Of a stretch of DNA of 55,740 nucleotides, positions 14,387 through 55,119 are shown one piece after another; positions within the stretch are counted from its first letter, which is position 1, and every line of letters starts with the position of its first letter. The stretch is from a virus (taxonomy: Duplodnaviria > Caudoviricetes), in IMG/VR virus record IMGVR_UViG_3300005805_000112, positions 1 to 55,740 of that record. One strand, written 5' to 3'. A program made the translations under genes and the position numbers. A model generated the notes under the pieces. The model saw nothing but the letters and a program-made list of their open reading frames with translations, did not search any database and was not told the DNA's origin.

Positions 14387-15592
14387 GTGCTGTCATTCAA
14401 GTCGTTTCTAATGGAATCTTCCGAGGAAGTTGCATATGCAAAACATCAGGATCACCCAGAAGATAATGCAGTCAAGAGTCAGCATGGATTTGAACATGCT
14501 GTATCTACCCTGCGCTCCGTTCAAAACGGTCTAAAGACAGGATCGTTTGAAGACAGCCACGTCTCAACAAAGCTTGATGGTGCACCAGCAATTGTGTTTG
14601 GCCACCATCCAACGACAGGCAAATTCTTCGTGACGACGAAACATGGTGCGTTTGCCAAGACACCTAAATTTGCATCTTCACATGCTGAAATTGATCAGCA
14701 CTTTGGCCACAGCCCTGGACTTGCACAGAAGATGCACAATGCGTTTGAGCATCTGTCAAAGGTTGCTCCTAGAAAGGGAATGTATCAGGGCGACTTGATG
14801 CATGACCACGGTGATCTGAAACACACTGATCATGAAGTTTCTTTCAAGCCAAATACAATCACCTATCATATTGGCAAGGATACCTCAGAGGGCAAAAAGG
14901 CTGTAAAGTCTAAGGTTGGTATTGCTGTTCATACTGAAATTCATGGCAATCCTGATCAGCCAGAAACAATGAGGGCTGCACCTATTCAAGATCATTCTGT
15001 GTTCAAGCCTCACTCAGACGTTCACATGATTTCACCAGAAACAAAGATCGAAAGAGGTGCTCATCTTTCAAAAGAAGAACATGCTAAGGTTGACGACCAC
15101 ATTAAAAAGGCTCAAGAAATTCACAACAGCCTTTCTTCTACACACCACGATATTATTGATCAGCATACTGATCACATTGAAACATACATTAACAAGACTG
15201 TACGCGCCGGCGATAAGCCAACTACTGCTGGTCTGAGAGAACACATCAAATCAAGAATGTCAAACGAAGTTGACAAAATGAAGTCTGAGAAGGGCAAGGC
15301 CAATAAGACTCAGGCAATGAACAATGCTCTTGCACTCCACGACACACACGAGAAGTCGTTTGCAAAGGCACTTCAGATTCATCACCACATTCAGTCTGCG
15401 AAGAATCTGTTAATAAAGGGTCTGAACACTGCTAATCAAAAGCAAAGCCAAATCAAACAGATAATTGACGGTAATGGAACGGATCCTGAAGGTTATGTCG
15501 TACAGCACAAAAATAGAGTAACCAAATTGGTTAATAGAGGTGAGTTTGCAAAAGCTAACTTCCTCCGTCCAAAGGAATGGCAGCAAAAATGA
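14387..15592 (+). CDS. DUF6267-like protein with ligase-type nucleotidyltransferase motifs
   Basis: TKLDG (KxDG), QGD, EGYVV, KLVNR; N-terminus MLSFKSFLME. Confidence 0.7.
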   Translation: MLSFKSFLMESSEEVAYAKHQDHPEDNAVKSQHGFEHAVSTLRSVQNGLKTGSFEDSHVSTKLDGAPAIVFGHHPTTGKFFVTTKHGAFAKTPKFASSHAEIDQHFGHSPGLAQKMHNAFEHLSKVAPRKGMYQGDLMHDHGDLKHTDHEVSFKPNTITYHIGKDTSEGKKAVKSKVGIAVHTEIHGNPDQPETMRAAPIQDHSVFKPHSDVHMISPETKIERGAHLSKEEHAKVDDHIKKAQEIHNSLSSTHHDIIDQHTDHIETYINKTVRAGDKPTTAGLREHIKSRMSNEVDKMKSEKGKANKTQAMNNALALHDTHEKSFAKALQIHHHIQSAKNLLIKGLNTANQKQSQIKQIIDGNGTDPEGYVVQHKNRVTKLVNRGEFAKANFLRPKEWQQK

Positions 15593-16200
15593 TCAAAGGA
15601 TTTCGCAACTTTATTATTGAGGAAAGTGATCTAAACCCAGTCGTCTTCTCTTATGGAAGAATGAATCCTCCTACTACAGGTCACGGAAAACTTGTAGACA
15701 AGGTAAAGGAAGTTGCAGCTAAACACAAAGCGAAACATGAAATCATTGTTTCGCATTCTCAAGATCCAAAAAAGAACCCTTTGTCACAAGAAGATAAAAT
15801 TAAGCACGCAAAGAGATTCTTTCCAGGCGCCAACATTGTAGGATCAAGCAAAGAAGCTCCTTCACTTATTCATCATGCCAAGCGTCTTTTTCAAGCCGGC
15901 CATAATCATTTAATAATGGTAGCTGGTTCTGATAGAGTTGAAGAATTTAGGAATCTGTTGAACAAATATAATGGAACTCACGATAAGGCTGAGTTCAATT
16001 TTAAGAAAATTGATGTAGTTTCTTCAGGTCAAAGAGATCCAGATGCCGAGGGTGTCGAAGGAATGTCGGCCTCTAAAATGCGCGAACATGCCTCCAATGG
16101 AAATTTCAATGAGTTTAAGAAGGGTGTGCCAGAACACGTCTCAGATAAACACGCCAAGTCCCTGTACGATGACGTCAGAAAGGGACTTGGAGTCAACTAA
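15589..16200 (+). CDS. Cytidylyltransferase-like (HxGH-type) nucleotidyltransferase
   Basis: GRMNPPTTGH, AGSDR, MSASKMR; ATGA-coupled to upstream gene. Confidence 0.85.
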   Translation: MIKGFRNFIIEESDLNPVVFSYGRMNPPTTGHGKLVDKVKEVAAKHKAKHEIIVSHSQDPKKNPLSQEDKIKHAKRFFPGANIVGSSKEAPSLIHHAKRLFQAGHNHLIMVAGSDRVEEFRNLLNKYNGTHDKAEFNFKKIDVVSSGQRDPDAEGVEGMSASKMREHASNGNFNEFKKGVPEHVSDKHAKSLYDDVRKGLGVN

Positions 16201-16233: not shown

Positions 16234-16518
16234 ATGGAAGCAGAATTCTTTAGGCTGGTGGCGGAAGTTGGATTTCCAATTGCATCTTCTATAGCAGGCG
16301 GATACTTTGTTTTTCTTACGCTCAAGTTTATTCTCGCCGGCGTTCAAAGTTCAGTAAAAGGATTAAGTGGGATTATCATGGCTCTTGACAATCGTGTCAA
16401 GACTATGAATCACGACATCGTCAGAATTGACACTTTAATTTCAACAGCACTTCATGTCAGACCTGATACCGACAGGCTTGCAAGAGCAGACGGTAAAAAC
16501 GACGCAAGAAAGGACTGA
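16234..16518 (+). CDS. Small membrane protein, YvrJ-like
   Basis: VAEVGFPIA + one TM helix + coiled tail; CTAAATA at 16197. Confidence 0.65.
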   Translation: MEAEFFRLVAEVGFPIASSIAGGYFVFLTLKFILAGVQSSVKGLSGIIMALDNRVKTMNHDIVRIDTLISTALHVRPDTDRLARADGKNDARKD

Positions 16519-16520: not shown

Positions 16521-16781
16521 ATGGATATTGTAACACTAATCAACAAATACGGATTCCCTATCGTCGCTGCTGGCGGTATGGGTTACTTGATCTTCTACGT
16601 TTGGAAATGGGCTACAGCAGAAATCAAACCTGTGTTATCTGAAGCAAACACAGTCCTGATTGCATTGATCGACCGTGTTAGAATGTTGGACAATGATTTG
16701 ATTAGACTGAATCAAAAAATTAACATCGTTCTAATGATGAGGGAGACGCATGCAAGCAAAGACAAGAAGGATACTGAATAG
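16521..16781 (+). CDS. Small membrane protein, YvrJ-like (paralog of 16234)
   Basis: INKYGFPIVAA + TM; LIDRVRMLDNDLIRL parallels ALDNRVKTMNHDIVRI. Confidence 0.65.
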   Translation: MDIVTLINKYGFPIVAAGGMGYLIFYVWKWATAEIKPVLSEANTVLIALIDRVRMLDNDLIRLNQKINIVLMMRETHASKDKKDTE

Positions 16782-16813
16782 CCTTCTACTTATGAACAAG
16801 ATAGAGAAACAAA

Positions 16814-16927
16814 ATGACGTACAACACAACTGACATGATTGTAGCTATGTGGGGGTGTCTAATGATTGGATTTGCTCTAGGACTGATCATAAGTGTTGTT
16901 TTTCAACTACTCAAGTGTTCATTTTGA
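16814..16927 (+). CDS. 37-aa single-TM protein (not in ORF track)
   Basis: MTYNTTDMIVAMWGCLMIGFALGLIISVVFQLLKCSF. Confidence 0.35.
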   Translation: MTYNTTDMIVAMWGCLMIGFALGLIISVVFQLLKCSF

Positions 16928-18970
16928 TGTGGCTCTATGAACTCCATCCCAGTCCGCTGGTGGCGGATTTTTAACGTAATCGCTACTTCTTTCATACATC
17001 ATTTCATAGTATGCATTCAGCTCACCATTGAATGCCTTGTTTAGCTTTTCACACAGTATCATTGCGTGTGTAAATTTTTGCGTGCGATAGCTGTCTAGCA
17101 TTATGTTGTGGGTGTCTCTGAACTGAGTGTAGTTGAGGAACTCCATTTCCTTGTTTGTGCCAAGTACAGTATAGATATTGACACCTTGTTTCTTTCCTTT
17201 TACTGCAATAGTGTCAAGTTCTATGATAAAATACTCGTCTGAAACGTATTCTGCAGTCTTTGGACCAATTACTATTCTCACACCATAAGGCTTCGACTGC
17301 CCTTCAAGTCTACTTGCAAGATTGACAGCATCACCAAGACATGTATAGTCGAAACGTTGATCGCTTCCCATATTACCAACAACCACTGTACCAGTGTTAA
17401 TGCCTAAACCCATTCCAAATGGAGGAACTCCCTCCTCGGCAATCTTTTTGTTAAAATCGTCAAGATCCCCCAACATACTGAGGGCTGTTTTGACAGCATT
17501 CTTTGCATGCTGCTTGTCATCTAAAGGAGCATTCCAGAAGGCCATCTGAGCATCTCCGATGTACTTGTCTAGTGTTCCACAGTTGTCTAGAATCTTTCCT
17601 GTCATAGCCGTCATGTAACGGTTCATTATGTTAGTGAGACCTTGAACGTCTTCGCCGTAATGCTCACTGATAGATGTAAACCCTCTCACATCAGTAAACA
17701 TGATAGAAAGCTCTCTGCTGTCTCCTCCAAGCTTTAGCAGGTTTGGGTTCTTCTGAAGCTTTTCGACTAGCTCCTTAGACAGATAGGATTGAAACTGCTT
17801 CTTAATCTGTTGTTTTAGCCTGAACTCTCTTGCGAAGTTATTGAACACTAGCCACGAAAAGATTAACGTAATAGAAAAGACTGGAAAGGAATAGTCAAAA
17901 AGCAAATTGTTTTGAAATGCTGCAAATCCTCCGACGACGGCTCCTGAAACTGCAACAACAAAGAAAGGAATTGTCTGCCAGACTTTAAGCTTTGGCACGA
18001 CAACTATCATTATGATTCCGACTATCAACACACCAAGTATCTCGACAAAATCAGCATAGTCAAGCCTTGTTAGACTATCTCCGTTGATCAAAGTAGACAT
18101 CATTGAGGCTTGAACGTCTGCTATGTTCTTTAGACCGTAGGGTGTTGGAACGTTTGTCGCCAGACCTTCTGCAGATATCGTCAGAATTACTACCTTGTTT
18201 TCTGCCGATTCAAGGTGATAAATCTGTCCTCTTGGAAATTCTTTGTTGTATTTGATCCACACTCTTGCATTTGAGTCTGTCTTAATTGTCTCAAATTGAG
18301 GAACACGAACAGATTCTATACCATTCTCACTTACCTTCATTTGATAGCTTGGATCACCCGTGAGAGATCTAATTACTTCTAGAGAAAGAGTTGGATACAA
18401 TTGACCAGCAACGTTGACGACAAGAGGGATTCGTCTTACAACGCCATCAATTTCACCACTTGCTGCAAGTACACCTACCCCTTCAGCAGCTTGTTCAAAC
18501 TCAGGAAGAGGCCTTACTATGCCAAGAAATCTTTGAAGGTGAGGCAGAGGGTCATTGCCTACTACCGCAATTCCTCTTGGTGTTCCATTTGTTTTTGATG
18601 CTTTGTTTGAAGGAGCCTGAGAAACAACAACACCTTCTAGAGCCCTTGCAAGATTAGCATCTTGACCAAATCTGTCTGGTTCTGAGAAGATGATAGGCAT
18701 TACTATCAATGCTGGATTGAATGTCTTAATCATTTCTATCAAAGCTGCTACTCTGTCTCTTGGCCACGGCCATTGCCCGAAGTTGTCTATGTCATCGTCT
18801 GTAATTTCTACAATGGATATTTGATCACTTTCTATCTGACCTGCATACACCTGATAGTAGTCAAACACTTTGAGTCTTGCTGTCTCTACAAGCCACCCAT
18901 CGTCTATTCTAATTGATAGGAGTGCTAAAAGAACAGCTGCAACAACCTTCCAAGAGGTGAAAAAACTCAT
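16919..18970 (-). CDS. CHASE2-domain class III adenylate cyclase
   Basis: N-terminal TM, CHASE2 (GQWPWPR, DGVVRRIPL), 3 TMs, cyclase FTDVRGFT, DKYIGDAQMAFW, GINTG, DYTCLGDAVNLASRLE. Confidence 0.92.
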   Translation of the reverse strand: MSFFTSWKVVAAVLLALLSIRIDDGWLVETARLKVFDYYQVYAGQIESDQISIVEITDDDIDNFGQWPWPRDRVAALIEMIKTFNPALIVMPIIFSEPDRFGQDANLARALEGVVVSQAPSNKASKTNGTPRGIAVVGNDPLPHLQRFLGIVRPLPEFEQAAEGVGVLAASGEIDGVVRRIPLVVNVAGQLYPTLSLEVIRSLTGDPSYQMKVSENGIESVRVPQFETIKTDSNARVWIKYNKEFPRGQIYHLESAENKVVILTISAEGLATNVPTPYGLKNIADVQASMMSTLINGDSLTRLDYADFVEILGVLIVGIIMIVVVPKLKVWQTIPFFVVAVSGAVVGGFAAFQNNLLFDYSFPVFSITLIFSWLVFNNFAREFRLKQQIKKQFQSYLSKELVEKLQKNPNLLKLGGDSRELSIMFTDVRGFTSISEHYGEDVQGLTNIMNRYMTAMTGKILDNCGTLDKYIGDAQMAFWNAPLDDKQHAKNAVKTALSMLGDLDDFNKKIAEEGVPPFGMGLGINTGTVVVGNMGSDQRFDYTCLGDAVNLASRLEGQSKPYGVRIVIGPKTAEYVSDEYFIIELDTIAVKGKKQGVNIYTVLGTNKEMEFLNYTQFRDTHNIMLDSYRTQKFTHAMILCEKLNKAFNGELNAYYEMMYERSSDYVKNPPPADWDGVHRATSK

Positions 18971-19992
18971 TTTTGTATTATCCTTATATTGTTCAGATAA
19001 GGTGAATTACCATCACCAACTGTAACAGGAATGTCTCCTTGACCCTGATTTATGTGTATTTGATAGTTCTTGTCTTTGTCAATGTTAACAGACATCGTTG
19101 CATTCACTACTCTCACAAGTTTTATAGTTGTCCCTTCTAGAATTGTGTTGATTTGTGTAGATGCATTAAACCCTGCCACCTTGCCGACAGAAGAACTATC
19201 AAACTCATCAAGAACGTTTGCGAGAAGATCGACATCTAATCTGTTAATATCCAGCTCATTAAACACCAGAAGATCCTTGTCAAGATCAGTTTTGTTAAGC
19301 TCTGTAAACTCAAGGAAGTCATTTCTAAGCAAAATGGAACCCCCTTCTTCTTTGTCTGCCAATTCAGGCTTAGAAACTATCAGAAGATTGTTAATTTGAG
19401 ATTCCGTAAGATTCAATATGACTGGGGAAGCTGGTTTGTTTTCACTTGATGCAACAAACGTCGACTGGAATGCCTTGTTGAGAACAACTTGTCCTGCATC
19501 AGTGTCAACTCTAATCTCACCCACAGTTCCATCATTGTTGGGAAGAAGAATCACAAGACTTTGGCCAACTTCATCAACAGTCATGCTGAATGAAGTTCCT
19601 CTGACACCCACTGTAGCAACAGGGGTTTGAATATTGATATTTTCGTTGTTGTTTTTTGCAATTGCACCGGAAGCATAGCGAACGGTTCCAAGAGCTATTT
19701 TCATAGACATCTTTCCCACTCCTTTGTTTGGGTCAAAGATGTACTCGTCTATGATAAGCTTACTGTTTTCTGTTATTGCTACTTGAGTTTCGTCTTTGAA
19801 TTTGATGTTGGCTCTTGCTCTTGAAGTTCTCACAGTGTCTAGCGATTCTACCTGAGAACCTTTTGATACGTCTACAGAAGAACCAGATTTTTTGTCTAGT
19901 TGAGCCGGGCCAGTCAGTTGGATGATTTCACCAATTGGACTGGCTTTCGCTTCAGTCAGACTGAGTAATAGTAGAAGTATGATTATTGCCAT
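18967..19992 (-). CDS. Exported FecR-domain protein
   Basis: Signal peptide; D.VRT, F.DET.V...ENS.L.ID, TPVATVGVRGTSF FecR-like motifs. Confidence 0.85.
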   Translation of the reverse strand: MAIIILLLLLSLTEAKASPIGEIIQLTGPAQLDKKSGSSVDVSKGSQVESLDTVRTSRARANIKFKDETQVAITENSKLIIDEYIFDPNKGVGKMSMKIALGTVRYASGAIAKNNNENINIQTPVATVGVRGTSFSMTVDEVGQSLVILLPNNDGTVGEIRVDTDAGQVVLNKAFQSTFVASSENKPASPVILNLTESQINNLLIVSKPELADKEEGGSILLRNDFLEFTELNKTDLDKDLLVFNELDINRLDVDLLANVLDEFDSSSVGKVAGFNASTQINTILEGTTIKLVRVVNATMSVNIDKDKNYQIHINQGQGDIPVTVGDGNSPYLNNIRIIQK

Positions 19993-20623
19993 TTGTCGTC
20001 ACATTCATTGTCTTTGTTATGTTTCCTGTTTGTGTCAGTGTAAGAGTTCCGTTGTTTCCTGTGTGTGAAACAACGGCAGAATGCGGAACGACTGGAGCAC
20101 CGGATTGGTTGAACGTTGTTGTATTAGTGTTTCCTGTCACTGTCAAAGTCAATGAACCTCCCTGACTATTCATTGTCAGGTTTGTTGTGTTCGTGTCTCC
20201 AGTGATAGTTGCATCAACAGTTATTTGATTTTGCTTTGCAACTACAGATGTAGTATTGTTGTCACCAATGTCATAGAACTTAATGTTTGCATCTGTGCAA
20301 TTGAAAGCTCCCCCTTCATTGCATTTGAAGTCCATTGTATTTGAGTTGCCTTCCTGCTTTAGATCGACAACGTTTGTGTTGCCTCTCAACTCAAAATTCA
20401 ACACGTTTGTTGCTCCATCCTGCATCACGGTGATTGTGTTGTTGTCGCCATTAATGATTGCAGGATTGATAGAGGTGTTTATCTTGTTGAGAGCTCCATT
20501 CTGTTGCGTGATTGTAAGAGTCAGAGCGTCTCCTGTTTGTTCAATGTAGATTTCACTTTCTGTTGCAAATGCAGCACTAGACATCAAACTAATCAACAAA
20601 CCCACAAAAAGGTTTTTGATCAT
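19952..20623 (-). CDS. Secreted curlin-like beta-repeat protein
   Basis: Signal peptide (SSAAFA); repeated N-x6-Q-x-G-like units (IYIEQTG, NNTITVMQDG, NVVDLKQEG, NTTTFNQSG, TLTLTQTG); Asn/Thr-rich. Confidence 0.7.
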   Translation of the reverse strand: MIKNLFVGLLISLMSSAAFATESEIYIEQTGDALTLTITQQNGALNKINTSINPAIINGDNNTITVMQDGATNVLNFELRGNTNVVDLKQEGNSNTMDFKCNEGGAFNCTDANIKFYDIGDNNTTSVVAKQNQITVDATITGDTNTTNLTMNSQGGSLTLTVTGNTNTTTFNQSGAPVVPHSAVVSHTGNNGTLTLTQTGNITKTMNVTTNGNNHTSTITQSD

Positions 20624-21405
20624 GTGTTTTCCTTTCTTTTCCAGATTTTCTTTCGTTCACCTTCTTTGATTAACTCTACAACAGACTGTTCGATAGCAGC
20701 CTTTACTGCATAGTTTGTTGGTTCATTCATTGCAAGACCAACCTCAGTTTCGACTGCTTTTGTGCCCATGTCTACAAATCTAAACACATCTGCTTGTGTT
20801 CTATAGCTTAGGATTGTCTTTTCAACTGCCGTAGAAATTAGAATCTCACCTGTCTGTACACTTACCATTCTTATGAATACAGTGACGACATCTTGTCTAT
20901 ACTGTGTAGAAGCACCTATTCCCAAGTATCTTGCTCCAATGCCTCCAGATGAGATGTTTGTGTCGTAACTAATAATTCCTCCCTCAACAATCACACCTGC
21001 AAACAGCAATGGCTTAAGTTCTTTTGCCTTCTCACCTTCAAATGCTTCTCTTGCTGTTCTAATCAACTGTCTCTCTTTTATGAGGTTGTCTAAACCCACG
21101 CGTTCTACAACTTTGAACCACTTTCCATTTCCAACATCTTGAAGAGACTTTATCACCCACGAATCAGCTCCTTGTGTGACAGCAGTGCTTAAATGAGCGA
21201 CGTTATCACTAGGCTTTCTTTGACCAGTTTTATCGAGATAGGAATAGACAGCTACTACGACTGGAGGACCGTCTATCTCCCCAATAGTTTCAAACTCTTT
21301 TTTGACTGTGGCATCTGGCTGCATTGATGAGGGAGCATAGAATTTTGGGACAAAAGAACAAGATGCAATTAGCAATGCTAGAGGCAAAAACAACAACTTT
21401 TTCAT
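20620..21405 (-). CDS. csgG: CsgG/HfaB family outer-membrane secretion pore lipoprotein
   Basis: Lipobox LIASC; VAVYSYLDKTGQRKP, STAVTQG, WFKVVER, EGGIISYD, GGIGARYLGIG. Confidence 0.92.
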   Translation of the reverse strand: MKKLLFLPLALLIASCSFVPKFYAPSSMQPDATVKKEFETIGEIDGPPVVVAVYSYLDKTGQRKPSDNVAHLSTAVTQGADSWVIKSLQDVGNGKWFKVVERVGLDNLIKERQLIRTAREAFEGEKAKELKPLLFAGVIVEGGIISYDTNISSGGIGARYLGIGASTQYRQDVVTVFIRMVSVQTGEILISTAVEKTILSYRTQADVFRFVDMGTKAVETEVGLAMNEPTNYAVKAAIEQSVVELIKEGERKKIWKRKENT

Positions 21406-21845
21406 TAGAATTTGAACTCGCCGATAGGAACTTCGACTGTTGTCGTGTTTCCGTTTGGTTGAACTATAGAAAGAGTGACAGATGAAGCATCTTTGATAAA
21501 CGAAATAGTGTTGCCTTCGACAACAACAGACCCACTGTTGCTTGCACTTTCGCCGAACATTGTGTCTACAAGCTGCTTGCTAATTTGTGCATAGATTCTT
21601 CCTTCTACGTTCAGAAGGAACTTTGAAAGGTTTGAATTGTCTATCTTTCTTTGCTCCTCACGACGTCTTGCGTCTTCGTCCGCTCTGATCTTCTCTCTTC
21701 TCTGGGATTCCATTGTTTCAATGGTCAGAACGTGCGACGAGTACCCAATTCCGCTGAATGAGGGATTTTTAAACGAAAAAGTTTGTGGTTCACTTTGTGA
21801 GATCGAAGGGATCAACACCATGACAAGGAGCAGAGTTTTGCGCAT
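21405..21845 (-). CDS. csgF: CsgF-like curli assembly protein
   Basis: GGAGGA RBS; signal peptide then TFSFKNPSFSG (cf. CsgF FQFRNPNFGG); NGNTTTVEVP C-terminus. Confidence 0.8.
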   Translation of the reverse strand: MRKTLLLVMVLIPSISQSEPQTFSFKNPSFSGIGYSSHVLTIETMESQRREKIRADEDARRREEQRKIDNSNLSKFLLNVEGRIYAQISKQLVDTMFGESASNSGSVVVEGNTISFIKDASSVTLSIVQPNGNTTTVEVPIGEFKF

Positions 21846-21859
21846 AGATCCTCCTGCAA

Positions 21860-21867
21860 TATTTATG
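21860..21867 (-). promoter_or_regulatory. T4-type late promoter for csgF-cyclase operon
   Basis: Reverse strand CATAAATA a few nt upstream of the csgF RBS. Confidence 0.6.
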
Positions 21868-21895
21868 TTGACACCCAATTTCTTATGTGTATAAT
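21868..21895 (+). promoter_or_regulatory. Sigma70-type promoter (divergent)
   Basis: TTGACA-N16-TATAAT. Confidence 0.7.
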
Positions 21896-21924
21896 GCAAC
21901 TGCCAACTACTTATGGAGAAATAT

Positions 21925-22146
21925 ATGAATCAGCGTAAAGGTAAGACTCACAGTGCAGCTCTTGGTGATGGCAGCAAAATTGACTTCAGGCAGCTTGTCA
22001 ACTATGTACACAGTGCAAGAGCTGCTCTTGAGAAGGAAGGGCTGGAAGACGCTGCATTCCGCTTCGAGATGTTTGAAGAGTTTCTTCGCAATGACTATGG
22101 AAGCGGTCAGCCTCTTGAATTTAAGACTCGTCATCTAGGAATGTGA
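21925..22146 (+). CDS. Hypothetical protein
   Basis: GGAG RBS; own promoter and terminator. Confidence 0.65.
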   Translation: MNQRKGKTHSAALGDGSKIDFRQLVNYVHSARAALEKEGLEDAAFRFEMFEEFLRNDYGSGQPLEFKTRHLGM

Positions 22147-22162
22147 CACTTACAAGCTAAAC

Positions 22163-22193
22163 AGCCCCAGGGGTTCTGCTCCTGGGGCTTTTT
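22163..22193 (+). terminator. Rho-independent terminator
   Basis: AGCCCCAGG...CCTGGGGCT followed by T-tract. Confidence 0.85.
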
Positions 22194-22224
22194 CTTTAGC
22201 TAAATATGTAAAATAGGAGGCGTC

Positions 22225-47374: not shown

Positions 47375-48595
47375 ATGGACTATGCTGTTGTTGGCCTTCA
47401 GTGGGGCGATGAAGGCAAAGGTAAGATTGTCGACTGTCTTATCAATCACGCACTTCCTAATAAGATTTGTGATGTTGTCAGGTTCAATGGGGGCAACAAT
47501 GCAGGGCACACAATTGTCAAGAATGGTAAGACGTATAAGCTCAGTTTGATTCCTACAGGTGCTTTGACAAATGGTATGAGGAACACAATTAGTCGTGGTG
47601 TTGCTTTTGATCCTTTGTATTTTATCAAAGAGCTCAACTACCTGAAGGATAATGGTATTGAGGTGATGCCAATGTACAGTGAGCAGTCTGAGCGTGGGGA
47701 GCTCAAAAACATTCATACCACTTCTTATCTTAATATTGACGAGGGTTGCCCCATAATTACGCCCATGCATCGTCACATTGATCAGAAGGAAAACGGTTCG
47801 ATTGGAACTACCTGTAGAGGTATTGGTCCAGCGTACTCTGACTATTATGCTCGTAAAGCAATCCGAGTGCGTGATCTACTGTTGACTGCAAAGCAGTTCA
47901 AAGAGCAGTTCCCACACTGTGATGAAGCAACATATCAAATGATTGAAGAAGTAAGAACTACCATTAATCCATTTATCAGCGAGTATCCTATCTTTTCATA
48001 TGAAGTTAAGTCTGTTCTTTTTGAAGGAGCTCAGGGAATGATGCTCGATGTCTTCTACGGCACCTATCCATATGTGACGTCTTCACCTGCAAATCCTGCA
48101 TTTGCTTCAGTAGTGACAGGATATCATCCGAAAGAATTGTGCACCATCGGTGTAATCAAGGCATATGCTACCCGTGTAGGAAACGGTCCGTTCAACACAG
48201 AGATTACAGAAGGTCCCGCCGCAGATGTTCTTAGCAACGTTGGCAAGGAAGTTGGAACTGTGACAGGGAGGAAGCGCAGGGTCGGATGGCTTGATTTGAC
48301 TGGTTTTCATGAGATCACTCGTATTGCTAACGTAAAGACGCTTGCCTTGACAAAGCTCGATGTTCTTGATTCCTTGAACGAGATTAATGTTTGTGTGAAT
48401 TCAACAGATTCTGATTCACAATACATGACCTTGCCAGGTTGGAAGACTTCGACACGAGGCATCACAAATTACAATGATCTCCCACAAAATGCAAAGGCAT
48501 ATGTTGATTTCATTGAGAAATTCACTGGATATGGCATAACCATGATTTCTACTGGTCCGGAGAGTGACAGTGTCATTCTGCGTCCTTGGCGGTGA
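47375..48595 (+). CDS. purA: Adenylosuccinate synthetase
   Basis: GLQWGDEGKGK, GGNNAGHT, GTT.RGIGPAY, EGAQG, TGRKRRVGW, TKLDVL, ISTGP. Confidence 0.92.
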   Translation: MDYAVVGLQWGDEGKGKIVDCLINHALPNKICDVVRFNGGNNAGHTIVKNGKTYKLSLIPTGALTNGMRNTISRGVAFDPLYFIKELNYLKDNGIEVMPMYSEQSERGELKNIHTTSYLNIDEGCPIITPMHRHIDQKENGSIGTTCRGIGPAYSDYYARKAIRVRDLLLTAKQFKEQFPHCDEATYQMIEEVRTTINPFISEYPIFSYEVKSVLFEGAQGMMLDVFYGTYPYVTSSPANPAFASVVTGYHPKELCTIGVIKAYATRVGNGPFNTEITEGPAADVLSNVGKEVGTVTGRKRRVGWLDLTGFHEITRIANVKTLALTKLDVLDSLNEINVCVNSTDSDSQYMTLPGWKTSTRGITNYNDLPQNAKAYVDFIEKFTGYGITMISTGPESDSVILRPWR

Positions 48596-48944: not shown

Positions 48945-49178
48945 ATGTCTTTGACAGAAGCTCAGCTTTACAATCTTGCTAGTGGAGGGGGGTCTGCGTA
49001 TGGCACGCACAATATGAAATTGTTTTGGGTCGCAAAACAACTCAAATCCGGCGATTTTGTGTACGTGGCAGGACCTTTTGCAACGTTTGCTGCTGCCGCA
49101 TGTCGAGCGTCGCCTAAACGCGTGATTGTTTCTTCTGAGGTTTCCGTACGTTTGGAAAAAGGTGTGGAAAAACAATAA
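48945..49178 (+). CDS. Hypothetical early protein
   Basis: AGGAGG RBS. Confidence 0.5.
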   Translation: MSLTEAQLYNLASGGGSAYGTHNMKLFWVAKQLKSGDFVYVAGPFATFAAAACRASPKRVIVSSEVSVRLEKGVEKQ

Positions 49179-49190
49179 GTTACAGCCCTG

Positions 49191-49227
49191 TTGCCTTATT
49201 TTCAAATAAACAAGATACTGAGTACAT
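49191..49227 (+). promoter_or_regulatory. Early sigma70-type promoter
   Basis: TTGCCT-N17-GATACT, then GAGTACAT shared with the 49474 promoter. Confidence 0.6.
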
Positions 49228-49249
49228 GATCAAGGAAAGGGAGACAGAG

Positions 49250-49456
49250 ATGGCCAAATTGACCAAGACCAAGACCAAGGCCAAGGTATATGTCCTGATT
49301 AATGAGTCGCTGTGGCCCACGGCCGTCGTGGGTGTGTTCAGTACGCGCGGCCTCGCCCTCGCCGCCTCCAAGAAGGAGCGCGCGAAATATCCGCGTCGAC
49401 TATATCGCCTTTCCCATCATATGGTTCGTGGGAATGTGACCAACCCCTTGATCTGA
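49250..49456 (+). CDS. Hypothetical early protein
   Basis: GGAG RBS; KVYVL...VVGVFST. Confidence 0.5.
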   Translation: MAKLTKTKTKAKVYVLINESLWPTAVVGVFSTRGLALAASKKERAKYPRRLYRLSHHMVRGNVTNPLI

Positions 49457-49473
49457 CACGGCAATTCCAGGGG

Positions 49474-49510
49474 TTGACAGAAGCCTGATCCAGCCCTATA
49501 CTGAGTACAT
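49474..49510 (+). promoter_or_regulatory. Early sigma70-type promoter
   Basis: TTGACA-N17-TATACT, then GAGTACAT. Confidence 0.7.
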
Positions 49511-49540
49511 AAGTTGGAAACAAGGACCAAGGAGACAGCG

Positions 49541-49738
49541 ATGAATCAGCGATCCAAAACCTTCCTCATAGAGTTTCAGAACCTTTGCCATCGTTTTGGT
49601 GTGGATTTCTCCTATGACCTCAATGGAATCTCGTTCATATCAACCGCCGAGACCTTCGTACTCGATCGGTCGGACATTGAGGTCGAAGTGACAAGCCTTG
49701 AAGATCTTGAGGCACAGGTCGCTAGATTGAAGGACTAA
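49541..49738 (+). CDS. Hypothetical early protein
   Basis: AAGGAG RBS. Confidence 0.55.
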   Translation: MNQRSKTFLIEFQNLCHRFGVDFSYDLNGISFISTAETFVLDRSDIEVEVTSLEDLEAQVARLKD

Positions 49739-49766
49739 CATCTTCAAAACACACGAAAAAATATCC

Positions 49767-49802
49767 GTTGCCTTTTTTCCGGAAAAAGGTATGATAGGGA
49801 TA
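49767..49802 (+). promoter_or_regulatory. Repeated early promoter module, copy 1
   Basis: GTTGCCTTTTTTCCGGAAAAAGGTATGATAGGGATA; 33/36 identical to 54324..54359. Confidence 0.75.
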
Positions 49803-49820
49803 GGTCAGATGGAGATGCAG

Positions 49821-50228
49821 ATGACGAAACTTGAACAAGCGGTCGAGGCTCTTAAGACGAATCAGTTCAAGACGAACGCCGAGTTCGTCGAGTTCCTGAT
49901 GTCGACTCTGAAGATGTCGAAGCTGGGTGCTCGGACGTACGCCTACAACGCGCGGAAGGCTCTCGGCACGACGCTCGAGGCTGCGAAGAAGGCGACGAAG
50001 GCTCGATACTTGCCGACTGTTGTGGATCCGTCGTCTGTTAACCCTTACGATAAGAAGTCGGTTGAGCGTTATGCTCGGTATCTTCATTCGATTGGAACGA
50101 ATGAAATTGTTCGTGACATGAACTTCGATGAAGTCTGGGTTCTCAAGTGGGATTATGCGCGGCTTGCGCTTGAGCGTGTCCTCCCGAAGGACGAGGCTCA
50201 GAAGGTTCATCGTAAGTTGTTCGGCTGA
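49821..50228 (+). CDS. Early protein sharing N-terminal domain with 50608
   Basis: KTNAEFV..LM..L.MSKLGARTYAYN. Confidence 0.7.
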   Translation: MTKLEQAVEALKTNQFKTNAEFVEFLMSTLKMSKLGARTYAYNARKALGTTLEAAKKATKARYLPTVVDPSSVNPYDKKSVERYARYLHSIGTNEIVRDMNFDEVWVLKWDYARLALERVLPKDEAQKVHRKLFG

Positions 50229-50249
50229 CATTTCCTCATGGAGGTAATC

Positions 50250-50528
50250 ATGGCTGTTCCTATGAAGCGTCAATTTGTTTCCCTCGAGGCGTTCAACTAC
50301 GATAAAGAAAGAAAGGTTCTTTCTTTGGTTGTCTATCAGCGGCCCCGCTGCGGCTTTCCTAAGTACCTCATGGTGCAATCTCATCACACAGGTAAGGAAG
50401 TTCGCTTCTCGGCTGTTGACAGACACGACAAACTGTTTGATGAGGATCATTGGGACGGTATGCAGCAGATCTATCGACCAATTGGTAACGTCCCAAACGT
50501 TGATCATTTGGTTTTGATTGCTGGTTGA
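50250..50528 (+). CDS. Hypothetical early protein
   Basis: GGAGG RBS; VQSHHTGKEVRF resembles VKSAKTGDVEFF in 55173 ORF. Confidence 0.55.
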   Translation: MAVPMKRQFVSLEAFNYDKERKVLSLVVYQRPRCGFPKYLMVQSHHTGKEVRFSAVDRHDKLFDEDHWDGMQQIYRPIGNVPNVDHLVLIAG

Positions 50529-50607
50529 CTTTTTTTCTTGTCCCAGTGACACTCCCTAAGTCACATACAGTTTAACCCTTTTACGAATCAACCCGATGGA
50601 GAATTAT

Positions 50608-51081
50608 ATGACTAAGACCTCTAAGCTGTCCCAGGCTATGGAAGCGTACAAGACTGGGAACTACAAGACGAATGCCGAGTTCGTCCAGTACCTCATGACT
50701 GACCTCAGCATGAGCAAGCTCGGTGCGCGTACGTATGCATATAACATCAAGCAGAAGCTTGGTCGTTGGGCGGTGGATGCTGACAAGATTAAGACAGATG
50801 TAGTCGCGACCGCACCCAAGGTCCGCAAGCATAAGGTTGTCAAGCCCTCGAAGATCACTGTCAGTCTCGATGAGGTGTTCAGCATTGCTAAGGGACAGTC
50901 TTCTCTTCCCACAGAAGTAGATGACACGGATCCTCTTGCGATCCCGGACTTCCTCCAGCGTCCTCGTACGAAGGCTGAAGGTGAACCGGAGACTCGCAAG
51001 CCGAGCCGCAAAGCGAAGCTGAAGACTGATACCAAGACCGACGTAGACACTCAGGACGTTTTGACTAACAGCAATGTGTGA
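50608..51081 (+). CDS. Early protein, paralog of 49821
   Basis: Shared N-domain; DPLAIPDFLQR motif; TTGACT-N17-GACACT at 50525. Confidence 0.7.
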   Translation: MTKTSKLSQAMEAYKTGNYKTNAEFVQYLMTDLSMSKLGARTYAYNIKQKLGRWAVDADKIKTDVVATAPKVRKHKVVKPSKITVSLDEVFSIAKGQSSLPTEVDDTDPLAIPDFLQRPRTKAEGEPETRKPSRKAKLKTDTKTDVDTQDVLTNSNV

Positions 51082-51158
51082 ATGGGAGGAAGCCAGGCAC
51101 CGTGCCACAACCAAGTAACCTGCTAGTATAACTTGCAAGATTATCAACGGAGATGGGC

Positions 51159-51854
51159 ATGAATCTCAAGAAAATCCTCAACGATCATCAACTGTGGCTG
51201 GACGCCAACGCGCGCGGCAAGTTGGCCATCCTCAGTGGGGCCAACCTCAGTGGGGCCAACCTCAGTAGGGCCGACCTCTGTGAGGCCATCCTCAGTGGGG
51301 CCATCCTCAGTGGGGCCGACCTCAGTTGGGCCAACCTCTGTGAGGCCATCCTCAATGGGGCCATCCTCAATGGGGCCGACCTCAATGGGGCCAACCTCAG
51401 TAGGGCCAACCTCAGTGGGGCCAACCTCAGTGGGGCCAACCTCAGTAGGGCCGACCTCAGTTGGGCCGACCTCAGTTGGGCCAACCTCCATGGGGCCAAC
51501 CTCCATGGGGCCAACCTCCGTAGGGCCAACCTCCATGAGGCCGACCTCAGTGGGGCCGACCTCAGTGGGGCCGACCTCAGTTGGGCCAACCTCAGTTGGG
51601 CCAACCTCAGTGGGGCCACGCGTGGCGGTTGCACGCTTAAAGGTCTTCAGGCATCAACCCAGCGCAGCGATAGTTTCATGTTTCTTCTCTGGGACACGGA
51701 AGAGGGCTGGCGCGTTGATGCAGGTTGTCGTTGGTTTACCTTCGAGGAGGCGAAGACGCATTGGAAGACGACTCGTGGCGGTACGTCTTTGGGGGACGAG
51801 ACCTTTGATATCCTGCAGTTCTTCCGTGCGCGTGCAGGGTATACAAACGGTTGA
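51159..51854 (+). CDS. Pentapeptide repeat protein
   Basis: 26 A(N/D/I)LXX repeats, then globular C-domain with AGCRWF. Confidence 0.9.
   Translation: MNLKKILNDHQLWLDANARGKLAILSGANLSGANLSRADLCEAILSGAILSGADLSWANLCEAILNGAILNGADLNGANLSRANLSGANLSGANLSRADLSWADLSWANLHGANLHGANLRRANLHEADLSGADLSGADLSWANLSWANLSGATRGGCTLKGLQASTQRSDSFMFLLWDTEEGWRVDAGCRWFTFEEAKTHWKTTRGGTSLGDETFDILQFFRARAGYTNG
51225..51614 (+). repeat. 26 tandem 15-bp coding repeats
   Basis: Consensus GCCAACCTCAGTGGG. Confidence 0.95.
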
Positions 51855-51930
51855 CCTAGCTCTTTCCGTATAAATAACACATATCATGTTTCTGATGACA
51901 CAGGTGTAACAATGATGTGGAGTCGAAAAC

Positions 51931-52239
51931 ATGAATGCTCATATAGACAAAATTCTTCGATCGCCTTCTCAAGATTTATTTGTGTATAACAAAATTTCCG
52001 GACATTGGTTTTGTAGAGAAAACTCAGACTTCTTTTGCCCTGAGCCCAGCATCGAAGTTTACACAAAGCTCGTTGTGCAGAATATTCTATCGCTACTTGA
52101 TAGCTGCAAAATACAAAACGCTGTTGCTGATCAACCCGATTATGACTATAATGCTTTCAATGTTCTGATTGAGGAGAAGTTTTATGGCAGAAAAAAAGAA
52201 CATTGTTCAGAAGCCTCTCAAAGGGCACTTCTTCTCTGA
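51931..52239 (+). CDS. Hypothetical protein
   Basis: TATAAATA at 51869; GGAG RBS. Confidence 0.5.
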   Translation: MNAHIDKILRSPSQDLFVYNKISGHWFCRENSDFFCPEPSIEVYTKLVVQNILSLLDSCKIQNAVADQPDYDYNAFNVLIEEKFYGRKKEHCSEASQRALLL

Positions 52240-52642
52240 ACGGAATATAAAGAGAGCAGAAGAGCACTACCAGGCAAAATTTGTGGATACGTTTGACTTG
52301 GGATACGGTCCAGTCGATGTGTTTTACAATCCAAACCCAGACGTATCGAAAGGGCACTCTCATTACTTTGCCCTCCGACAGATAGTCGGTAACATTTTGA
52401 TCAGCAATGGTTCGAAGGTTCTTGAATTACCTCTCATTGGTTTGAGAGCTGATGATGGTGAAATTATGTTCAGTCGTCACAGACATGATTATAGGACGAG
52501 TCAAGATGGAACAGTATCTGTTGATGGGGGAGTTGATTACTTCCGCACTAGCATTCACAATGATAGCTCTGGCATTCCTTTTAATGAACGACTAGTCAAA
52601 CTTAAGGTGGTCGAAGACCGCATCGAGGTGTCTGCCCCATGA
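52184..52642 (+). CDS. Conserved phage hypothetical protein
   Basis: GAGGAG RBS; SRHRHDY, VDGG.DY.R. Confidence 0.65.
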   Translation: MAEKKNIVQKPLKGHFFSERNIKRAEEHYQAKFVDTFDLGYGPVDVFYNPNPDVSKGHSHYFALRQIVGNILISNGSKVLELPLIGLRADDGEIMFSRHRHDYRTSQDGTVSVDGGVDYFRTSIHNDSSGIPFNERLVKLKVVEDRIEVSAP

Positions 52643-52881
52643 GAGACATGACAGCACATATTGATGCATGCATAGCTAACTTAGCAAAAGCTATTGAAGA
52701 AAACAGATGGGCTCTGGAAGCTGCTAGAGCTGAAATTTTATATCTGAAAGAAAAATGTGACGAAGCTCATCATGTACTTAAAAACGCCTACACTTCCTCA
52801 AACGGAGAAGTGCTTTCGTTGTATGAGTTGAGCAAGAGATTTGCAGAGTGGGAATATAGGTTTACTGACGATCATAGATAG
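52639..52881 (+). CDS. Hypothetical protein
   Basis: ATGA coupling, GAGG RBS. Confidence 0.5.
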   Translation: MRDMTAHIDACIANLAKAIEENRWALEAARAEILYLKEKCDEAHHVLKNAYTSSNGEVLSLYELSKRFAEWEYRFTDDHR

Positions 52882-52890
52882 GAGAATAAA

Positions 52891-53922
52891 ATGAATACTA
52901 AAACGCTTATTACTGGAATTGCTATCTTTTGTTCAGCATCAAGTATGGTAGCTGCACAAAACGCCCGCGACCAGATCCGCGCCGTCGGCTCCTCGACGGT
53001 CTTCCCGTTCACCACGACCGTCGCCGAGAACTTCGCGCGCACCTCGGGGATAAAGGCGCCGATCGTCGAATCCACCGGCACGGGCGGCGGCTTCCGCCTG
53101 TTCTGCGCCGGCGTCGGCACCCAGCACCCCGATCTTTCGAATGCCTCGCGCGCGATCACGAAGTCCGAGATCGAAACCTGCACGAAGAACGGCGTCACCG
53201 CGATCACCGAGGTCAAGATCGGCTTCGACGGCATCGTGCTGGCGGTCAAGAAGGGGGCGCCGAAATTCGACGTCACCCGCCAGCAGGTGTGGCTCGCCCT
53301 CGCGCGTCAGGTGCCGAAGAACGGCCAGCTGGTCGCCAACCCGCATCAGCGCTGGAGCGACATCGATCCCAAGCTCCCGAACATCGCCATCGAGGTGATG
53401 GGCCCGCCCCCGACCTCCGGTACGCGCGACGCCTTCGTCGAGATGGTGATGGATTTCGGCTGCAAGGACTTCGCCGAAATCAAGGCGATCGCCGATTCCC
53501 GCGCCCGCGCCCAGGCCTGCGCCGCGATCCGCGAGGACGGCAAGTTCATCGAAGCCGGCGAGAACGACAACCTGATCGTCCAGCGCCTCGTCGCTGGTCA
53601 GGGCGTCGCGATCGGGATCTTCGGCTACTCCTTCCTTGAAGAGAACATCGACAAGCTCCAGGCCAAGCATGTCGACGGCGTCGAGCCGAGCTTCGAGAAC
53701 ATCTCCGAGGGCAAGTATCCCGTGTCCCGCTCGATGTTCGTCTACGTGAAGAACGCCCATGCCGGCGTGATCCCGGGTCTGCGCGAGTTCGTCTCCGAGT
53801 ACGTCTCGGATCGCTCGATGGGCGAGAACGGGTATCTCGAGAAGAAGGGCCTCATCCCGCTGCCCAAGGCGGAGCGCGAGAAGGTCCGTATCACTGCAGC
53901 CAATCTAACCCCAATGAACTGA
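52891..53922 (+). CDS. pstS: Phosphate ABC transporter substrate-binding protein
   Basis: Signal peptide; IRAVGSSTVFPF, STGTGGG, SNASR, GPPPTSGTRDAF, YPVSR; body markedly GC-rich. Confidence 0.95.
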   Translation: MNTKTLITGIAIFCSASSMVAAQNARDQIRAVGSSTVFPFTTTVAENFARTSGIKAPIVESTGTGGGFRLFCAGVGTQHPDLSNASRAITKSEIETCTKNGVTAITEVKIGFDGIVLAVKKGAPKFDVTRQQVWLALARQVPKNGQLVANPHQRWSDIDPKLPNIAIEVMGPPPTSGTRDAFVEMVMDFGCKDFAEIKAIADSRARAQACAAIREDGKFIEAGENDNLIVQRLVAGQGVAIGIFGYSFLEENIDKLQAKHVDGVEPSFENISEGKYPVSRSMFVYVKNAHAGVIPGLREFVSEYVSDRSMGENGYLEKKGLIPLPKAEREKVRITAANLTPMN

Positions 53923-53931
53923 GGATATAAA

Positions 53932-54258
53932 ATGTCTGATAATTTTCGCTATACTCTTATTGCTGAACAAATTAATCGTCCAGGCGATTTCCATAAGGAT
54001 TCAAAGATTAGTATTGTGTGCACACCAATGGATCTCAAAGATTTGCTTTCGAATCTCGCTTCGCTTGTTAATGCTGCAGGCTACAATTATGTCGAGGAGT
54101 TGCATGCAGTTTGTGGTGAACTTACTCATACAAGTCTTGGAGAGACATTTGACAGTGATGATGAGGACTATTCTTGGGATGAACGTGATGATAAGGAATC
54201 TGAAGAGGATGAGCCTGAACAGGCAGCTCCAGAGGTCAAACCTGAAGAAACCAAATAA
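53932..54258 (+). CDS. Hypothetical acidic protein
   Basis: GAGGA RBS; acidic tail. Confidence 0.6.
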   Translation: MSDNFRYTLIAEQINRPGDFHKDSKISIVCTPMDLKDLLSNLASLVNAAGYNYVEELHAVCGELTHTSLGETFDSDDEDYSWDERDDKESEEDEPEQAAPEVKPEETK

Positions 54259-54272
54259 TCGTTAACAAACAC

Positions 54273-54302: not shown

Positions 54303-54323
54303 GAAATGCACTGTTTTTTTGTT

Positions 54324-55116: not shown

Positions 55117-55119
55117 TGG

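Follow-up and report, generated by a model that had tools for sequence, protein, structure and literature searches.

The DNA analysed here is IMG/VR virus record IMGVR_UViG_3300005805_000112, positions 1 to 55,740, and this whole stretch of 55,740 nucleotides is referred to as the window. It represents one viral record with a completeness estimate of 34%. On the minus strand of the window, at 16919–21845, we found an operon of five consecutive open reading frames (ORFs) in the order csgF, csgG, curlin-repeat gene, FecR-domain gene and CHASE2 cyclase gene. An earlier note on this DNA had described such a five-gene operon, and the description held: all five proteins scored above the curated Pfam cut-offs against which our calls were judged, each of the domains CsgG, CsgF, Curlin_rpt, FecR, CHASE2 and Guanylate_cyc being detected, and successive reading frames overlap in transcription order by 1, 4, 41 and 4 nt. 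Four of the five proteins are covered by PHROG families exclusive to phages. The phage context of the block is given by a T4-type DNA polymerase and a virion protein in the window; the polymerase is ~50% identical to gp43 of cyanomyophages, as expected of a T4-like phage. We are nearly certain that the block is a new, rather divergent member of the known viral type VIII secretion system (T8SS)/curli region of T4-like aquatic myophages. Its genes, domains and upstream signals are the following, in transcription order (AF2, AlphaFold2; pLDDT, predicted local distance difference test score; TM, transmembrane helix):

21860–21867, minus strand: CATAAATA, motif resembling T4-type late promoters, 3 nt before the csgF ribosome-binding site (RBS)
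21851–21856, minus strand: csgF ribosome-binding site AGGAGG, with 5 nt to the ATG
21405–21845, minus strand: csgF, 146 aa, Pfam CsgF
20620–21405, minus strand: csgG, 261 aa, Pfam CsgG
19952–20623, minus strand: curlin-repeat gene, 223 aa, signal peptide, Pfam Curlin_rpt
18967–19992, minus strand: FecR-domain gene, 341 aa, Pfam FecR
16919–18970, minus strand: CHASE2 class III cyclase gene, 683 aa, Pfam CHASE2 and Guanylate_cyc, phrog_35576 (4.6e-207)
18011–18931, minus strand: CHASE2 periplasmic sensor domain of the cyclase, residues 14–320, between TM1 and three helices, AF2 pLDDT ~90
17165–17713, minus strand: catalytic domain of the cyclase, residues 420–602, with D427, K469, D473, T543, N550 and R554
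16922–17155, minus strand: helical C-terminal tail of the cyclase, residues 606–683, pLDDT ~85–94

The start of csgF was taken at the ATG following the AGGAGG; the longest frame would open at a TTG at 21899. The CsgF protein matches its Pfam family with 2.4e-14 (54 bits against a cut-off of 25.8, covering 128 of the 132 profile positions) and phrog_35372 with 1.6e-44, and its similarity to E. coli CsgF by phmmer is weak (E 0.36). Its N-terminal leader, MRKTLLLVMVLIPS, falls below the hydropathy threshold used. A segment TFSFKNPSFSG is similar to the N-terminus by which CsgF binds CsgG. The CsgG protein (Pfam CsgG 6.7e-54) can be aligned over its full length to E. coli CsgG with an E value of 7.8e-51. 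It begins with the hydrophobic N-terminus MKKLLFLPLALLIASC, which contains a lipobox-like LIASC, and its constriction loop reads KPSDNVAHLST where E. coli has KPYP-ASNFST. By these features the csgG product is predicted to be a lipoprotein that forms the outer-membrane pore for type VIII (curli) secretion. The curlin-repeat protein has a hydrophobic N-terminus and matches Curlin_rpt with 3.4e-7 (30.5 bits against a cut-off of 20.7), the best stretch being 15 residues long; in the family alignment the repeats follow the pattern xTxTxTQxGxxN. It is a candidate secreted fibre subunit of the CsgA/B type.

Three T8SS components (CsgG, CsgF and the curlin-repeat subunit) are present in the window and CsgE was not found: PF10627 had no match in any of five records, the window and four relatives that are at least 90% complete, with E. 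coli as a positive control. Alphaproteobacterial curli systems have likewise been described without CsgE (PMC9599517; published work is cited here by PubMed Central number). The block could on this basis mainly serve to secrete curli-like amyloid fibres, either for aggregation ("sibling capture") or to shield the cell from superinfecting phages. FecR and the cyclase would then tune secretion, perhaps by sensing the periplasmic curlin load or by replacing CsgE/CsgD, and would not be a sensor directed outwards. Such a function has been proposed in PMC9599517 and PMC7029224, and the presence of the minimal curli set agrees with it, as does the lack of CsgE in the five records, with which another periplasmic factor may be needed. 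However, the Curlin_rpt match is short, and the authors who described the Methylophilales phage Melnitz saw no clumping in cytograms or by transmission electron microscopy (PMC9004378). We regard fibre secretion as the main function as possible but doubtful, and come back to it below with the evidence from relatives of the block.

The last gene of the operon encodes the largest of the five proteins. It matches CHASE2 with 1.2e-37 over residues 14–320 and Guanylate_cyc with 2.7e-20. The AF2 model and hydropathy agree on TM1 at residues ~7–23, followed after the CHASE2 domain by helices at 306–327, 330–353 and 361–393. The topology is thus that of CHASE2 receptors: TM1, periplasmic CHASE2, three helices and a cytoplasmic output domain. 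The earlier note had claimed that the cyclase keeps its two Asp, the N...R pair and the ATP-selecting Lys in DKYIGD. We confirmed this by alignment to solved class III cyclases (6fht, 2w01, 3r5g), in which D427, K469 (the Lys of DKYIGD), D473, T543, N550 and R554 all find their counterparts, and the six catalytic and ATP-selecting residues are invariant across 20 viral homologues. The position of K469 is occupied by a Lys in the adenylate-specific 6fht and by a Glu in the guanylate cyclase Cya2 (2w01). We take the two Asp to be metal-binding, the Lys and Thr to contact the substrate, and the Asn and Arg to stabilize the transition state; T543, seven residues before the Asn, presumably represents the second ATP-selecting position of class IIIb cyclases. 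With these residues intact, the protein is predicted to be a class III (IIIb-like) adenylate cyclase producing cAMP. The best fold match is CyaB (3r5g_A, Z 10.8), in a search that returned matches to the cyclase domain only, so that the CHASE2 part was barely tested by it. In the monomer AF2 model the catalytic domain has a pLDDT of 34–60. The helical C-terminal tail contains eight residues that are invariant in the 20 viral homologues (H621, Y628, Y654, Y655, R661, W674, D675 and G676), and bacterial relatives align up to residue 683.

The FecR-domain protein (Pfam FecR 4.4e-12) consists of a leader of 17–21 hydrophobic residues, directly followed by a FecR beta-sandwich (~20–200), a linker (206–271) and a C-terminal beta domain (272–341). 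The 65-residue linker is disordered and varies in length among relatives. The C-terminal domain is small, all-beta and ends in a conserved IxIxQK. Mean pLDDT of the AF2 model is 75.3, with ~90 in the FecR domain. Residues 49–201 match the PupR structure 6ovk_R (CCSSD) with Z 15.5 (rmsd 2.5, 134 aligned residues). A second match, to the "cell surface anchoring domain" 5ix9, involves residues 17–113 (Z 7.8, rmsd 2.2, 74 of 76 residues, 23% identity). We take 5ix9 to belong to an ice-binding adhesin; this likeness of the modelled N-terminal part is suggestive, a Z of 7.8 lying within the commonly seen range. For the C-terminal domain no fold scored above Z 3.4, and residues 266–341 gave no usable match in a structure-atlas look-up. 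We also considered whether the C-terminus is a curlin repeat, as IxIxQK and a QxGxG-like stretch hint. This idea was rejected: in a profile-profile comparison of the FecR and curlin families only the leader peptides matched, with a probability of 6%, a result that also speaks against fibre secretion as the main function of the block. Neither Pfam nor the AF2 model revealed a barrel domain in the 341 residues, no cytoplasmic anti-sigma domain with a transmembrane helix precedes the FecR domain, and no STN-like subdomain was recognised. The protein stands outside the FecR/PupR family of anti-sigma regulators, although it shares the domain. A complex prediction for CHASE2 (22–322) with FecR (18–205) scored 0.00 against a mark of 0.32, was run without controls and weighs neither way.

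In order to place the block among known phages we compared it with published genomes and with IMG/VR. In tblastn searches the cyclase is 38–41% identical to counterparts in Pelagibacter phage HTVC008M and in Melnitz, and CsgG is 51–56% identical in the best segments and 48–51% over longer alignments. The GenBank entries of both phages annotate, in the same order, CsgF, CsgG, a curlin-associated protein, a FecR-domain protein (Melnitz) and an adenylate/guanylate cyclase. The curli cluster was reported in pelagimyophages in 2020, when its role was called a mystery (PMC7029224). CsgGF was modelled for Melnitz in 2022 (PMC9004378). In the same year an mSystems article delimited the T8SS region of podo- and myo-pelagiphages as CsgF, CsgG, CsgA/B, FecR, a second CsgA/B and adenylate cyclase, regarded FecR and the cyclase as "putatively regulatory" and of alphaproteobacterial origin, listed metatranscriptome matches and found viral T8SS proteins at all 65 ocean stations surveyed (PMC9599517). 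The complete chain of pore, ligand, relay and cyclase, which the earlier note had regarded as the novelty, is hence already contained in that article and annotated in HTVC008M and Melnitz. In our literature search CsgG, adenylate cyclase, phage and FecR came together only in PMC9599517, whose supplements (Fig. S3, Data Set S1) may list similar modules from myophages or from fresh water. The term "CHASE2" does not occur in the main texts of PMC9599517 and PMC7029224, nor do "cyclase" and "FecR" in the main texts of PMC9004378 and PMC7029224. What is new here is the CHASE2 identity of the cyclase sensor, the frame of FecR-CHASE2 envelope signalling and the evidence for a phage-specific join of two bacterial modules.

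Conservation of the block was assessed in two viral samples. IMG/VR contains at least 590 stretches with genes for cyclase relatives; the first sample comprises the best 80 of these loci and is biased towards myophage-type relatives, and the second, seeded with CsgG, likewise comprises the best 80 matches with the same lean. Gene order could be evaluated in 50 of the 80 cyclase-seeded loci (at least 4.5 kb upstream of the cyclase) and in 25 CsgG-seeded loci (at least 6 kb downstream of csgG). In 48 of the 50 loci, at cyclase identities of 49–77%, CsgF-CsgG-...-FecR lies upstream of the cyclase with strand and order unchanged; curlin was detectable by tblastn in 42 of them as well. FecR and cyclase were both present in all 25 CsgG-seeded loci. 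Co-occurrence of csgFG, FecR and cyclase in related phages, which the proposal in the earlier note presupposes, is thus well supported. The two exceptions are L069, in which the csgF-to-FecR block is inverted downstream with the cyclase on the opposite strand, and L076, in which three other ORFs separate FecR and cyclase and csgFG would lie beyond the DNA examined. Among 67 viral FecR-cyclase pairs the stop of FecR overlaps the start of the cyclase by 4 nt in 31, the type to which the window belongs; a gap of 200–350 nt occurs in 25 and additional genes lie between the two in nine. Several of the 200–350 nt gaps contain an ORF of ~100 aa (L023 6654–6956, L051 6631–6975, L075 6606–6959).

Most relatives carry a second curlin-like gene between FecR and cyclase, a feature that favours fibre secretion; it is not present in the window, where the two genes overlap. 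The block of the window is the most compact form, with FecR coupled to the cyclase and no second curlin gene. A second CHASE2 or FecR gene, e.g. for a CHASE2 histidine kinase, was found in none of 160 viral loci, which include no histidine-kinase loci of the podophage type, and upstream of csgF in the window there is only a divergent 77-aa ORF and no histidine kinase. The second CsgA/B gene (frequent in myophages) and the upstream histidine kinase (podophages) are described as variable features, and podophage versions often keep FecR without the cyclase (PMC9599517). Since these two features vary, their absence here does not speak against membership in the viral T8SS region.

One close relative, L130, is nearly identical to the window in csgF and csgG (98–99.7% at the DNA level) and 96% identical in the FecR protein. 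The CHASE2-coding part (17800–19000) is the most divergent with 69–74% nucleotide identity, and the catalytic part is back at 90%. Recombination could have produced such a mosaic, or the sensor domain may be evolving fast.

We next turned to cellular relatives. One genome per prokaryotic species was scanned with the cyclase, which yielded 46 loci. Three of them, all on "MAG" contigs (L084, L085, L086), encode cyclases ~50% identical to that of the window. L086 carries the full block and the short L085 most of it, including curli genes, and the short L084 holds the cyclase only. The flanks of L086 match phage-only PHROGs, down to 2e-136, and we therefore consider it a phage contig binned in a MAG; the plus-strand proteins of the window had no matches on L084–L086. 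Other full-length bacterial relatives are 26–35% identical and come from Micavibrio, Micropepsaceae, Desulfovibrionaceae, Terriglobales, Verrucomicrobia and others. Within 10 kb of bacterial CHASE2 cyclases tblastn found csgG or csgF at none of 26 loci. A FecR-domain ORF, searched for in the examined flanks with HMMs built from the phage proteins, stands beside the cyclase at 11 of the 26, mostly abutting it, compared with none of 17 relatives without CHASE2 (Fisher p = 0.0014). The number of FecR matches genome-wide is two in Micavibrio and one in one Desulfovibrionaceae genome, and one in each adjoins a CHASE2 cyclase. The FecR protein of the window shares 35% identity with that of Micavibrio (5e-28), and the cyclases are 32% identical over their full length.

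The bacterial partners are sizeable proteins of the cell envelope and come in several architectures. In L116, L119 and L128, the only loci at which barrel-fused FecR proteins were seen, a single ORF of ~1177–1352 aa, combining FecR, TPR and a TonB-type beta-barrel, lies directly upstream of the CHASE2 cyclase. L119 and L128 are Verrucomicrobia/Limisphaerales MAG contigs, and L116 is titled Bifidobacterium, a label that is probably a binning error. Two alphaproteobacteria (L091 and L094) encode giant BapA_N+FecR+FG-GAP proteins with the FecR domain near the N-terminus, and a FecR+TIG+PKD+CARDB partner is found in Terriglobales. The locus in the Micavibrio aeruginosavorus chromosome (L094, 4823–17371) further comprises a TolC-like OEP, an ABC exporter with a C39 peptidase domain, HlyD, the CHASE2 adenylate cyclase, a 138-aa ORF between the cyclase and FecR genes, the FecR gene itself (coding for the 1052-aa BapA_N+FecR+FG-GAP protein) and a cNMP-binding EAL phosphodiesterase. 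Judged by its gene content this neighbourhood may couple adhesin secretion to cAMP and c-di-GMP signalling.

For the curli half of the block we searched 401 alphaproteobacterial genomes and found a close CsgG in seven. All seven loci have csgF and curlin-like genes nearby, several in the order csgF-csgG-curlin, and the phage curlin family profile matches the csgG-adjacent curlin-like genes in each of them, a point in favour of a genuine fibre subunit and of fibre secretion. FecR or CHASE2 was present at none of the seven, in agreement with PMC9599517, which states that FecR and cyclase lie outside bacterial T8SS operons. Because csgFG are missing at all 26 CHASE2-cyclase loci and FecR/CHASE2 at all seven csgG loci, and the join was observed on phage DNA alone in our sample, the block looks like two bacterial modules put together: an alphaproteobacterial-type csgF-csgG-curlin unit and a FecR/CHASE2-cyclase signalling pair. 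The 0 of 26 result also bears on fibre secretion as the main role, as a pair that occurs in bacteria without curli genes is not a curli regulator by origin.

That the bacterial FecR-CHASE2-cyclase pair exists without csgFG opens another explanation, namely an independent takeover of the host. The CHASE2 cyclase, with or without FecR, would sense a cue, periplasmic or external, that is unrelated to the curli pore, and its cAMP would reprogramme host metabolism through a CRP-type regulator of the host; its position in the block would reflect shared late timing and envelope location. The separation of the cyclase from the csgF-to-FecR block in L069, the three intervening ORFs in L076 and the independent variation of CHASE2 in L130 would fit this. 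However, gene order and adjacency are kept in 48 of 50 loci in spite of cyclase identities as low as 49%, and both are also kept across myo- and podophages (PMC9599517), which is hard to explain without a functional linkage. We therefore hold an independent role of the cyclase to be unlikely.

A functional linkage of the two modules can be formulated as follows. Late in infection the operon would be transcribed from the putative T4-type late promoter. CsgG and CsgF would, by homology, form a pore in the host outer membrane with the curlin-repeat protein as its export substrate. The periplasmic FecR protein, presumably co-produced with the cyclase through translational coupling, would join the outer-membrane apparatus to the periplasmic CHASE2 domain, which in turn would set the activity of the cytoplasmic class IIIb cyclase and hence the production of cAMP. 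In the window and five large related viral records (four of them at least 90% complete) we found no cNMP_binding domain; cAMP would therefore act through host receptors. That FecR is the periplasmic link in a chain from CsgG/CsgF pore and curlin through CHASE2 to cAMP is, in our estimate and by analogy to bacterial systems, about evenly balanced between right and wrong, the connection to the pore being its most tentative step.

The analogy is to Sinorhizobium, and it makes a trans-envelope cAMP sensor plausible. In S. meliloti the CHASE2 cyclases CyaK and CyaD1/D2 of the inner membrane produce cAMP in response to an external protein signal, and for this they depend on the outer-membrane protein NsrA (PMC7529298, PMC13001267). 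CHASE2 cyclases of Campylobacterota are found clustered with an outer-membrane protein containing a FecR domain, with a TPR protein and with a cAMP phosphodiesterase (PMC9239204), and in Burkholderiales the gene for a LysM-FecR periplasmic protein adjoins that for a CHASE2 histidine kinase (PMC5192318). The proposal of the earlier note that the phage builds an outer-membrane sensor whose state is converted to cAMP thus gains support from the NsrA-CyaK/CyaD1/D2 precedent and from FecR neighbours of CHASE2 cyclases in several phyla, while the novelty it attached to the chain did not stand. An output in lysis timing or in the sensing of superinfection or cell density, which it also suggested, is speculation.

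Several observations weigh against such a chain. The FecR-domain protein SMc02177 of S. meliloti is dispensable for the perception of plant signals by CHASE2 cyclases (PMC5498481), and 15 of the 26 bacterial CHASE2-cyclase loci have no FecR ORF in their flanks, so the pairing is frequent but not obligatory. Podophages often have FecR without the cyclase (PMC9599517), from which it follows that FecR must also work without it. No beta-barrel, adhesin or LysM part anchors the phage FecR protein in the way of its bacterial counterparts, and its connection to CsgG, CsgF and curlin is one of synteny. In L130 the contrast between FecR (96%) and CHASE2 (69–74% at the nucleotide level) is unlike tight co-evolution of partners, though it fits a diversifying sensor domain. 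The late promoter is a motif match, and late expression would leave little time for a transcriptional response to cAMP.

The domain structure of FecR suggests a more specific variant of the chain, in which FecR acts as a tether through the pore. The FecR domain would remain in the periplasm as a ligand of CHASE2, much as the retention module of type I-secreted adhesins does, the 65-residue linker would pass through CsgG, and the C-terminal beta domain would be exposed on the cell surface, bound to CsgF or to the curlin fibre. Tension on the fibre, its occupancy or loss, or contact with another cell or a superinfecting phage would then change cAMP. We give this variant a small chance. Were it true, the phage would build a surface-contact sensor from a secretion pore, and signalling to CHASE2 by a FecR domain that forms the periplasmic terminus of a fibre, barrel or adhesin would be a general, so far undescribed bacterial principle.

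Next, we examined the signals and genes around the operon. The earlier note had placed a late promoter just upstream of the csgF RBS. The motif CATAAATA is indeed found there, and ATAAATA is enriched in the window, with 12 occurrences where 5.4 are expected, a count reached in none of 100 shuffles; about 8 of these copies are followed by a start codon within ~65 nt. The motif makes a T4-type late promoter upstream of csgF plausible. Directly adjacent, at 21868–21895 on the plus strand, there is a perfect sigma-70 consensus promoter (TTGACA, 16 nt, TATAAT; 12 of 12 positions), followed by the 77-aa ORF (21913–22146), which has no Pfam match, and a strong terminator with a 12-bp stem at 22163–22189. 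By its signals the stretch 21868–22189 (plus strand) is a small early-type transcription unit, placed back to back with and divergent from the late-type csgF promoter. Outside the operon, transcription of the window runs rightwards. Of the remaining long ORFs on the minus strand five were scanned; none has a Pfam match and all overlap plus-strand genes, in agreement with the view of the operon as the only substantial reverse-strand block. Convergent with the end of the cyclase gene lie two tandem paralogous genes for small membrane proteins (16234–16518 and 16521–16781, plus strand; phrog_18771, 9e-33 and 7e-34), one of which has a marginal holin match (phrog_4898, 8e-4, 19 residues).

These surroundings bear on a further explanation, according to which CsgG, with or without CsgF, is a gated pore that times lysis in the manner of a pinholin, the other genes being accessory. 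A lysis role was proposed for Melnitz (PMC9004378). The late type of the promoter motif, the constriction-loop residues that differ from E. coli CsgG and the small membrane proteins converging on the cyclase could be cited in its support, but the holin match, seen for one of the latter, is marginal. Furthermore, CsgG is an outer-membrane lipoprotein, and a pore located there does not depolarise the inner membrane. The conserved presence of curlin, FecR and cyclase (48 of 50 and 25 of 25 loci) would also be left unexplained. We consider a lysis device distinctly improbable and keep the FecR-linked chain to cAMP as the preferred reading.

DNA nearly identical to 16800–22200 was found mostly in lake-water and freshwater metagenome runs, and 60% of the words sampled from this region occur in two studies besides the possible source. 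None of the runs listed was of RNA, which has no bearing on whether the operon is expressed. The habitat of the source phage is thus probably fresh water. Freshwater fonsimyophages were described as being without the curli operon (PMC7029224); since the near-identical DNA comes mostly from lake and freshwater metagenomes, the block nevertheless also occurs in freshwater T4-like phages.

Elsewhere in the window, a DUF6267 protein (1.3e-81) and a cytidyltransferase-like protein encoded at 14387–16200 (plus strand) represent the two halves of a single family, phrog_455, and look like a gene pair that is split here or fused elsewhere. An adenylosuccinate-synthetase-like protein is encoded at 47375–48595 (plus strand; phrog_1211, 1.9e-85, labelled "2-aminooxy adenylosuccinate synthetase"). 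Over 49000–55740 the GC content climbs from ~0.42 to 0.52, and this part encodes a pentapeptide-repeat protein (51153–51854, 6.5e-68) and a PstS-like phosphate-binding protein (52891–53922, PBP_like_2 1.1e-44).

The viral curli block is widespread, as the number of IMG/VR stretches with cyclase relatives indicates, and the CHASE2 sensor together with the recurrent FecR-CHASE2 envelope pair, for which NsrA-CyaK is a precedent, provides a concrete hypothesis for its role. If it is true, the block would be a rare example of a phage that supplies a trans-envelope sensory pathway of its own, with pore and fibre as the input of cAMP signalling, and could shed light on what CHASE2 domains sense. If it is false, the block would still be a natural minimal T8SS without CsgE.

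In comparison to known systems the window is closest to the T8SS region of HTVC008M, Melnitz and uncultivated myo- and podophages, with which it shares gene families, gene order, a T4-like host phage and the lack of CsgE (PMC7029224, PMC9004378, PMC9599517). It differs from HTVC008M and Melnitz in that the second curlin-like gene is missing, so that FecR is directly coupled to the cyclase, and in that the block lies on the strand opposite to its neighbours and not between ssb and baseplate genes. With the curli system of E. coli (CsgBAC/CsgDEFG) it has CsgG, CsgF and curlin repeats in common, but repeats and constriction loop diverge, CsgE was not found, and FecR and the cyclase are added. The FecR fold is shared with FecA-FecR-FecI and PupB-PupR; the phage protein, however, has a leader, no anti-sigma domain, and a cyclase instead of an ECF sigma factor as partner.

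On the signalling side, the phage cyclase has the CHASE2 and Guanylate_cyc architecture of CyaK, CyaD1 and CyaD2 in the NsrA-Clr system of S. meliloti. In place of a large beta-barrel protein the phage has a soluble FecR protein of 341 aa and the CsgG/CsgF pore, and no Clr-like receptor was found in the window and five relatives. NsrA carries its barrel at residues 600–1200, which agrees with the layout of the FecR+TPR+barrel proteins of L116, L119 and L128. Type I-secreted giant adhesins offer a further parallel: residues 17–113 of the phage FecR superpose on 5ix9 from a retention module, and the Micavibrio-type giant FecR proteins adjoin a CHASE2 cyclase, in L094 together with type I secretion genes. 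The phage protein is small in comparison, and CsgG, not a TolC-like channel, would serve as its pore. The bacterial FecR and CHASE2 pairs (PMC9239204, PMC5192318 and loci L091–L128) resemble the phage most directly in placing a secreted or envelope FecR protein next to a CHASE2 receptor, and both FecR (35%) and cyclase (32%) of the phage are most similar to the Micavibrio-type pair. In these bacteria the FecR domain has a barrel, an adhesin or LysM attached by fusion or linkage and no curli genes nearby, whereas the phage FecR stands alone beside a T8SS.

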